Positions 17,937-18,092 of a stretch of 64,000 nucleotides of DNA are shown here, one piece after another. The DNA comes from a virus (lineage: Duplodnaviria; Caudoviricetes). Numbering within the stretch: position 1 is the first letter of the stretch; each line of letters starts with the position of its first letter. A model generated the notes under the pieces. That model saw only the letters and a list, made by a program, of their open reading frames with translations, was not told where the DNA came from and did no database searches. The stretch lies in the IMG/VR virus record IMGVR_UViG_3300025909_000005; one strand, given 5' to 3'. The translations under genes were made by a program, and so were the position numbers.

Positions 17937-18029
17937 ATGCATTGGCAAAATCGCCAAGACGTCGTCACGTTTGAACGAAACGAGAAGACCATTGATACGA
18001 CCCTGGTTCAAGGGAGGCAAGTAGCTTAA
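17937..18029 (+). CDS. Candidate attenuator leader peptide MHWQNRQDVVTFERNEKTIDTTLVQGRQVA
   Basis: 30-codon ORF overlapping the antiterminator 5' arm; first 22 codons match the array tRNAs; no clear SD. Confidence 0.7.
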   Translation: MHWQNRQDVVTFERNEKTIDTTLVQGRQVA

Positions 18030-18059
18030 CACGCAACTGCCACAGCACTTGAACCAGGG
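18001..18059 (+). promoter_or_regulatory. Antiterminator helix
   Basis: CCCTGGTTCAAG (18001-12) / CTTGAACCAGGG (18048-59), perfect 12 bp; overlaps the terminator 5' arm. Confidence 0.75.
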
Positions 18060-18092
18060 ACCTTACGAAAGTTTGGTCCCTGGTTTGCTTTT
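18052..18092 (+). terminator. Intrinsic terminator (attenuator)
   Basis: AACCAGGGACC / GGTCCCTGGTT 11-bp stem followed by TGCTTTT. Confidence 0.75.

Follow-up and report, generated by a model that had tools for sequence, protein, structure and literature searches.

A putative leader-peptide attenuator whose amino-acid composition matches the tRNA array that it precedes in a giant phage

What decides when a giant phage transcribes its block of tRNA genes? The regulation of phage tRNA genes is essentially unknown, and they are usually treated either as constitutively co-expressed codon-usage patches or as decoys against host defences. In a giant soil phage, of which we analysed a single 64-kb stretch (hereafter the window), positions 17600-18290 lie between protein-coding genes and a + strand array of about 30 tRNA genes. 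This segment contains a short ORF written only in the amino acids that these tRNAs carry, followed by what appears to be a switchable transcription stop. The arrangement suggests that the phage probably makes these tRNAs only when ribosomes decode the corresponding codons slowly. The elements that we recognise, all on the + strand, are as follows:

17631..17659: promoter-like site 1 (GTGTAC-N17-TAGAAT).
17719..17749: promoter-like site 2 (GTGTAC-N19-TACAAT).
17814..17842: proximal promoter-like site 3, ending in CTGTATATAAT, with an inferred transcript start near 17850.
17896..17899: Shine-Dalgarno-like AGGA, 7 nt before a GTG start.
17907..18029: leader ORF of 40 codons plus TAA; codons 1-31 (17907-17999) form the predicted sensing part and the last 9 codons overlap or follow antiterminator arm A.
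17942..17957: conserved small hairpin inside the ORF (TTGGC / GCCAA), a candidate RNA-polymerase pause hairpin.
18001..18012: antiterminator arm A, inside the 3' end of the ORF.
18048..18059: antiterminator arm B, which shares 18052-18059 with the 5' arm of the terminator.
18052..18092: predicted intrinsic terminator, with stem 18052-18062 / 18075-18085, a CGAAAG-type loop and the tail TGCTTTT.
18103..18205: conserved structured RNA element of unknown function between the terminator and the first tRNA.
18273..18284: boxA-like TGCTCTTTGACA (11/12).
18291..22543: the tRNA array, with genes for W,E,H,I,F,D,K,T,R,N,Q,M,V only and a few small ORFs interspersed.

The promoter-like sites share the motif GTGTAC-N15-20-TAnAAT, which has 7 matches on the + strand of the window against 0.02 expected; sites 1 and 2 were also found by a sigma-70 scan. 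The remaining copies, at 1010, 3477, 28846 and 50984 (+ strand), probably mark one temporal class of phage promoters. At the proximal site a GTATA(T/A)A(A/T)T box lies at the same place in the homologs and upstream of the leaders of Ralstonia phage RsoM2USA (see below). ARAGORN at default settings finds tRNAs for W,E,H,I,D,K,T,R,N,Q,V in the array, while relaxed ARAGORN and Rfam searches add Phe(gaa) at 18784, Met(cat) at 19860 and a Gln(ttg) gene at 20635. The array therefore serves exactly 13 amino acids, and no tRNA for L,S,P,G,A,Y or C occurs anywhere in the window. The same searches revealed a tRNA gene at 20723-20844 (Rfam 38.9 bits) with an insertion of about 50 nt, the 3' part of which is read by relaxed ARAGORN as Arg(acg). 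Spacer-sized non-tRNA stretches also lie inside the array at 18533-18621, 19515-19595, 19756-19859, 20363-20436 and 20515-20634; the last holds two T-loop-like hairpins, suggesting degenerate tRNAs or other small RNAs.

The preliminary description of this locus reported a 30-codon ORF starting at ATG 17937 and ending at 18029. This ORF is present as described, but it is the 3' part of a longer frame. Alignment with homologs places the start 30 nt further upstream, at GTG 17907, in a column that holds ATG or GTG behind a GGA box (7-10 nt upstream) in every relative, and the ATG at 17937 becomes codon 11. The run of residues drawn only from M,H,W,Q,N,R,D,V,T,F,E,K,I spans 33 codons (17904-18002) and is the longest such run in all six frames of the window, the next longest being 19. 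The sensing region is 30/30 in the set of the array against an expected fraction of 0.61 (p=4e-7). The stretch is 34% A, which raises the expected in-set share to about 0.72; even so, of 20000 dinucleotide-preserving shuffles of 17910-18002 none reached the observed 31/31 (mean 22.2, max 29), and the other five frames of the same stretch score 15-22 of about 30. The composition is thus more striking than first noted. In contrast, the further observation that every codon is readable by an array anticodon is true but uninformative, as 29.2 of 30 would be expected from synonymous usage alone; the codon-level match overall is likewise no better than chance (313/328 against 305 expected).

The second component is a pair of mutually exclusive RNA structures. 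Arm A is a perfect 12-bp complement of arm B, which in turn shares eight bases with the 5' arm of the 11-bp terminator stem. The 251-nt leader folds far better than its shuffled counterparts (z = -7.1). When a 30-nt ribosome footprint is imposed, stalls at codons 1-27 let all 12 A:B pairs form in the nascent RNA, whereas a ribosome on codons 29-37 covers arm A. The isolated antiterminator (-28.9 kcal/mol) is more stable than the terminator (-25.3 kcal/mol), but in full-length equilibrium folds the terminator always wins, so the switch has to be kinetic, as in classical attenuators. The stop codon lies 18 nt before arm B, and a terminating ribosome would therefore sit in the A-B loop without masking the terminator. 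The ribosome-free state is not settled: the full-length minimum-energy structure of the window pairs arm A with the Shine-Dalgarno region, but covariation does not support this pairing, and nascent folds without a ribosome already prefer A:B.

We next asked whether this anatomy is conserved. Neither the window nor its leader has a near match in INPHARED or IMG/VR: blastn/megablast of the leader region and of 25 kb of the window against INPHARED gave only generic tRNA hits or nothing, an exact 21-mer of the leader is absent from IMG/VR, and a search with the neighbouring protein (15842-16564) found no relatives there. Sequencing-run look-ups place the phage in rhizosphere metagenomes. However, searches of IMG/VR and then of JGI/ENA metagenomes with a structure-shaped pattern and with a 17-mer from the conserved element downstream of the terminator recovered about a dozen distinct homologous loci, plus several near-identical copies of the window phage. 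These loci are designated below by L and a number, and those with leaders like that of the window are termed class 1. In an 11-sequence alignment the antiterminator keeps 87.7% of cells paired, with compensatory changes at 6 of 12 pairs, and the terminator keeps 91.7%, with compensatory changes at 3 of 11; both exceed all 500 shuffles on the covariation score and all slid registers. RNAalifold also recovers the small hairpin inside the ORF, with pairs kept through changes on both sides. The distance from the stop codon to arm B is 18-22 nt in the homologs, although arm A had to be set by eye in L006, L021 and L013.

The reading frame is open, at 40-45 codons, in all 11 diverged class-1 homologs, yet the peptides are only about half identical, and codon positions 1, 2 and 3 differ at similar rates (0.38/0.43/0.50). 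In the L032/L064/L068 lineage the tail over arm A is read in a different frame, as expected if the tail is constrained as RNA and not as peptide. It is the set of amino acids and the RNA arms that appear to be conserved, rather than a peptide sequence. The structured element at 18103-18205 is likewise present in 12 diverged loci (the window, L001, L005, L006, L007, L012, L021, L027, L041, L042, L066 and L068), even where the leader peptide class differs. It has a covarying hairpin (18106-18123) and a covarying stem capped by an invariant 12-nt loop (within 18156-18172), and it has no Rfam match; RNA-library contigs from other organisms match 18106-18192 at about 88%. It may be a processing or processive-antitermination element. 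One variant locus, L041 (1-267), has this element and a 40-codon upstream ORF but no intrinsic terminator between them. The boxA-like site is absent from the equivalent place in other class-1 homologs.

If the leader samples the tRNAs of its own array, its amino-acid set should co-vary with array content among related phages, as the preliminary description had proposed; this prediction came out positive in several independent lineages. Within class 1, the residues of the sensing region that fall in the set of the leader's own array number 30/30 in the window, 30/30 in L001, 29/30 in L012, 28/32 in L007, 27/29 in L042, 31/33 in L006 and 32/33 in L021. The L021 lineage has extra Ser and Gly tRNAs in its array and extra Ser and Gly in its leader. 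Arrays with other amino-acid sets have leaders of correspondingly different composition. First, in the related phage G001 (183 kb) the main array serves C,D,E,F,G,H,L,M,P,Q,R,S,W,Y, and its leader (L005:9986-10117:-) uses all fourteen, is 32/35 in set and lacks N and K. A separate G001 cluster, cut by the contig end, serves K,N,A,I,T behind a leader rich in exactly those residues (L008:2889-2972:-); in L008 an HNH-endonuclease-like ORF is inserted between a leader/terminator cassette and its tRNA cluster (about 1250-1710 in reverse-complement coordinates of L008). Second, the related phage G003 (106 kb) has a class-1 array and a second array serving A,C,G,I,K,L,M,N,P,S,T,V,Y, the leader of which (L013:11805-11906:-) is 27/28 in set and built of S,L,G,P,A,T with Y,C,V,N. 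Some single genomes carry two complementary array/leader pairs.

We then examined two phages chosen only because their PrkA protein resembles that of the window, where a PrkA-type AAA protein kinase (Pfam E 8e-149) is followed by a DUF444/YeaH-type protein (45707-49223); its closest phage relatives are huge uncultured phages and RsoM2USA. In the cultured Ralstonia phage RsoM2USA one array serves M,I,N,Q,K,R,F,A,V,P,D,T, and its leader (L077:4249-4362:-) is 31/32 in set. It contains six Ala and has no E, W or H in its sensing part, just as the array has Ala but no E, W or H tRNA. Another array of this phage (P,C,E,Y,L,W, followed by a cluster with H,V,S,L) lies behind a leader made of S,H,W,Y,L,P,V,E,C, which is 21/23 in set against the two clusters together and 12/23 against its own cluster alone. 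In the huge phage LR756502 (642 kb) the leaders score 20/24 (set I,L,M,N,R,T,V), 17/27 (F,H,K,R,S,W) and 10/34 (D,P,Q); the last, L085, shows only weak enrichment (p=0.016) and no clear antiterminator. When nine arrays are permuted among nine independent leaders, only the true assignment reaches the observed summed score, whether sensing regions or whole ORFs are used (1 of 362880). Most of these cassettes show the same overlap of the terminator/antiterminator with the 3' end of the ORF. Neither RsoM2USA leader is annotated: the GenBank record (MG752970.1) lists no tRNA or leader features at 86900-88300 and 111500-112900 and carries a CDS (RsoM2USA_176) antisense to the tRNAs and the leader, which is probably spurious, while the paper on this phage annotated only ORFs over 50 residues and does not mention leaders or terminators (PMC8504454).

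The correspondence is not without exceptions. Some leaders contain residues for which no matching tRNA was found downstream, namely Ser/Ala near the N-terminus in L007, L016, L027 and L042, a conserved Cys in L006/L021, and Val in L006 and L005. Some arrays are cut by contig ends. Further, several tRNA clusters have no recognisable leader/terminator cassette upstream: L009 and L010 of G001; L078, L079 and L080 of RsoM2USA, the last being preceded by a small lipoprotein-like ORF; and L083 of LR756502. Amber-suppressor-type tRNAs (anticodon CTA) are present apart from the main arrays in several of these phages (L010 of G001, L015 of G003, L081 of RsoM2USA). In the second array of G003 two promoter-like sites followed by an exact rrn-type boxA (near 2500 in the reverse complement of L013) lie between the attenuator and the first tRNA, and the attenuator may therefore gate only part of the transcription there. 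With respect to expression, Logan contigs from metatranscriptome libraries of three studies hold the leader at 17901-18141, 17906-18087 and, from a diverged relative, 17874-18158, leaving 15000-17870 uncovered. This shows that the leader is present in RNA libraries; the contig ends do not coincide and contigs cannot give transcript ends or levels, so that the end at 18087, within the terminator, is at most a weak hint.

Taken together, these observations are best explained, with fairly high confidence, by a ribosome-mediated (trp/ilv-type) transcription attenuator placed between the promoters and the tRNA array, the attenuator geometry being as the preliminary description had proposed. We infer that transcription starts near 17850 and that a ribosome loads at GTG 17907. 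Under fast decoding, it would run into and past arm A and sit at the stop codon, so that A:B cannot form, the terminator forms and transcription ends at about 18090. If the ribosome is instead delayed at any of roughly codons 1-27 because a matching charged tRNA is scarce, arm A would stay free and pair with arm B as soon as the latter is made; the terminator stem then could not form and RNA polymerase would read on into the array. The products of the array, together with host tRNAs, would speed up decoding of the leader, and the circuit would accordingly be a negative feedback that sets the supply of exactly the tRNA species it controls. Translation of the leader, stalling and switchable read-through are inferences from sequence, without experimental data, and the mechanism could not work if the phage separated transcription from ribosomes, as nucleus-forming jumbo phages do. 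As the regulatory codons are mostly single, rather than tandem runs as in trpL or hisL, sensitivity to any one tRNA may be low. The array-specific match argues against any explanation that is not array-specific; for instance, a general need of phage genes to use phage-decodable codons fails because each phage carries tRNAs for the other amino acids in other arrays.

Among the alternatives, the one that survives best keeps the same attenuator but assigns it to counter-defence, as in the preliminary description: the array would stay off until anticodon nucleases or other tRNA-depleting defences cut host tRNAs and stall the leader ribosome. This is possible but, as the specific purpose, seems unlikely. 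The geometry does respond to loss of any in-set tRNA, and the array of the window is rich in Lys, Asn, Asp, His, Arg and Glu species, which are probably targets of such nucleases. However, arrays for Leu, Ser, Pro, Gly, Ala, Tyr and Cys have the same kind of leader, implying that the system covers all amino acids and favouring a general homeostat over a purely anti-nuclease alarm. Moreover, RsoM2USA has 41% G+C in a 67% G+C host (PMC8504454) and its leaders are full of A/T-ending codons, which fits codon supply and demand; such a simpler supply/demand feedback explains the data equally well. More doubtful still is the idea that the leader is a stand-alone small gene, encoding a stable small RNA and/or a 40-residue peptide with its own terminator, with the array transcribed by constitutive leaky read-through. 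The presence of the leader in RNA libraries, a peptide core (W-Q-Q-R-Q and R-F-E-R) conserved within class 1, and the trans-acting attenuator-derived RNAs and peptides of Sinorhizobium (PMC6614838, PMC7968998) are compatible with it, but it explains neither why unrelated leaders in other arrays and phages each match their own array nor why an antiterminator arm overlaps the 3' end of the ORF with compensatory changes, and the peptide sequence as such is weakly constrained. Finally, chance or base composition, whereby an A-rich untranslated leader happens to be open in one frame and to avoid seven amino acids, is rejected by the shuffles, the run length and the recurrence of the property with different amino-acid sets.

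In a broader sense, it is likely that giant phages with near-complete tRNA sets split the 20 amino acids among several tRNA operons, each governed by its own leader-peptide 'test strip' written in the amino acids of that operon. This would be a modular, self-tuning tRNA homeostat and the first case of tRNA genes regulated by ribosome-mediated attenuation, a mechanism previously known only for amino-acid biosynthesis, transport and synthetase genes; we found no description of leader-peptide attenuation of tRNA genes or of phage tRNA arrays in full-text literature searches. It would let the phage match tRNA output to the pool of any host, and could also act as an alarm for tRNA-targeting host defences. 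On this reading, the leaders are also compact, portable sensors of decoding speed for chosen codon sets.

The regulatory hardware itself is of a known type, and several systems provide points of comparison. T-box riboswitches also sense tRNA status and act by a terminator/antiterminator choice, but they bind uncharged tRNA directly and need no translation; no T-box or other Rfam family matches 17000-18290 at E<=1, and tRNAs are the only Rfam matches in 17000-28000 at that threshold. The attenuator-derived sRNA rnTrpL and peptide peTrpL of Sinorhizobium (PMC6614838, PMC7968998) illustrate that a terminated leader transcript can be a discrete RNA that accumulates, and the leader RNA of the present system is found in RNA libraries. 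In the E. coli trp operon attenuator (trpL, segments 1-4) the position of the ribosome likewise appears to decide between alternative 2:3 and 3:4 hairpins, with a terminated leader RNA of roughly 150-250 nt; here, however, the ORF runs through segment 2 (arm A) and stops in the loop between arms A and B, a 1:2-type pairing is not supported by covariation, and no single regulatory amino acid is used. The pheST operon with its pheM leader probably offers a parallel in that a component of the translation apparatus is controlled by how fast a leader is decoded, that is, by the charged-tRNA level, but it controls a synthetase for one amino acid, whereas here the product is the tRNA itself, which would give direct product feedback. 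Closest, in all likelihood, are the multivalent leader-peptide attenuators of enterobacterial amino-acid operons, such as the ilvGMEDA leader sensing Ile/Leu/Val and the thr leader sensing Thr/Ile, which have a short translated leader, an intrinsic terminator and a mutually exclusive antiterminator, with stalling at codons for several amino acids giving read-through. In the phage-borne element the controlled genes are tRNA genes and not biosynthetic enzymes, 13 amino acids are sampled, mostly as single codons and without tandem runs, and the amino-acid set of the leader tracks the tRNA identities downstream, changing from array to array.
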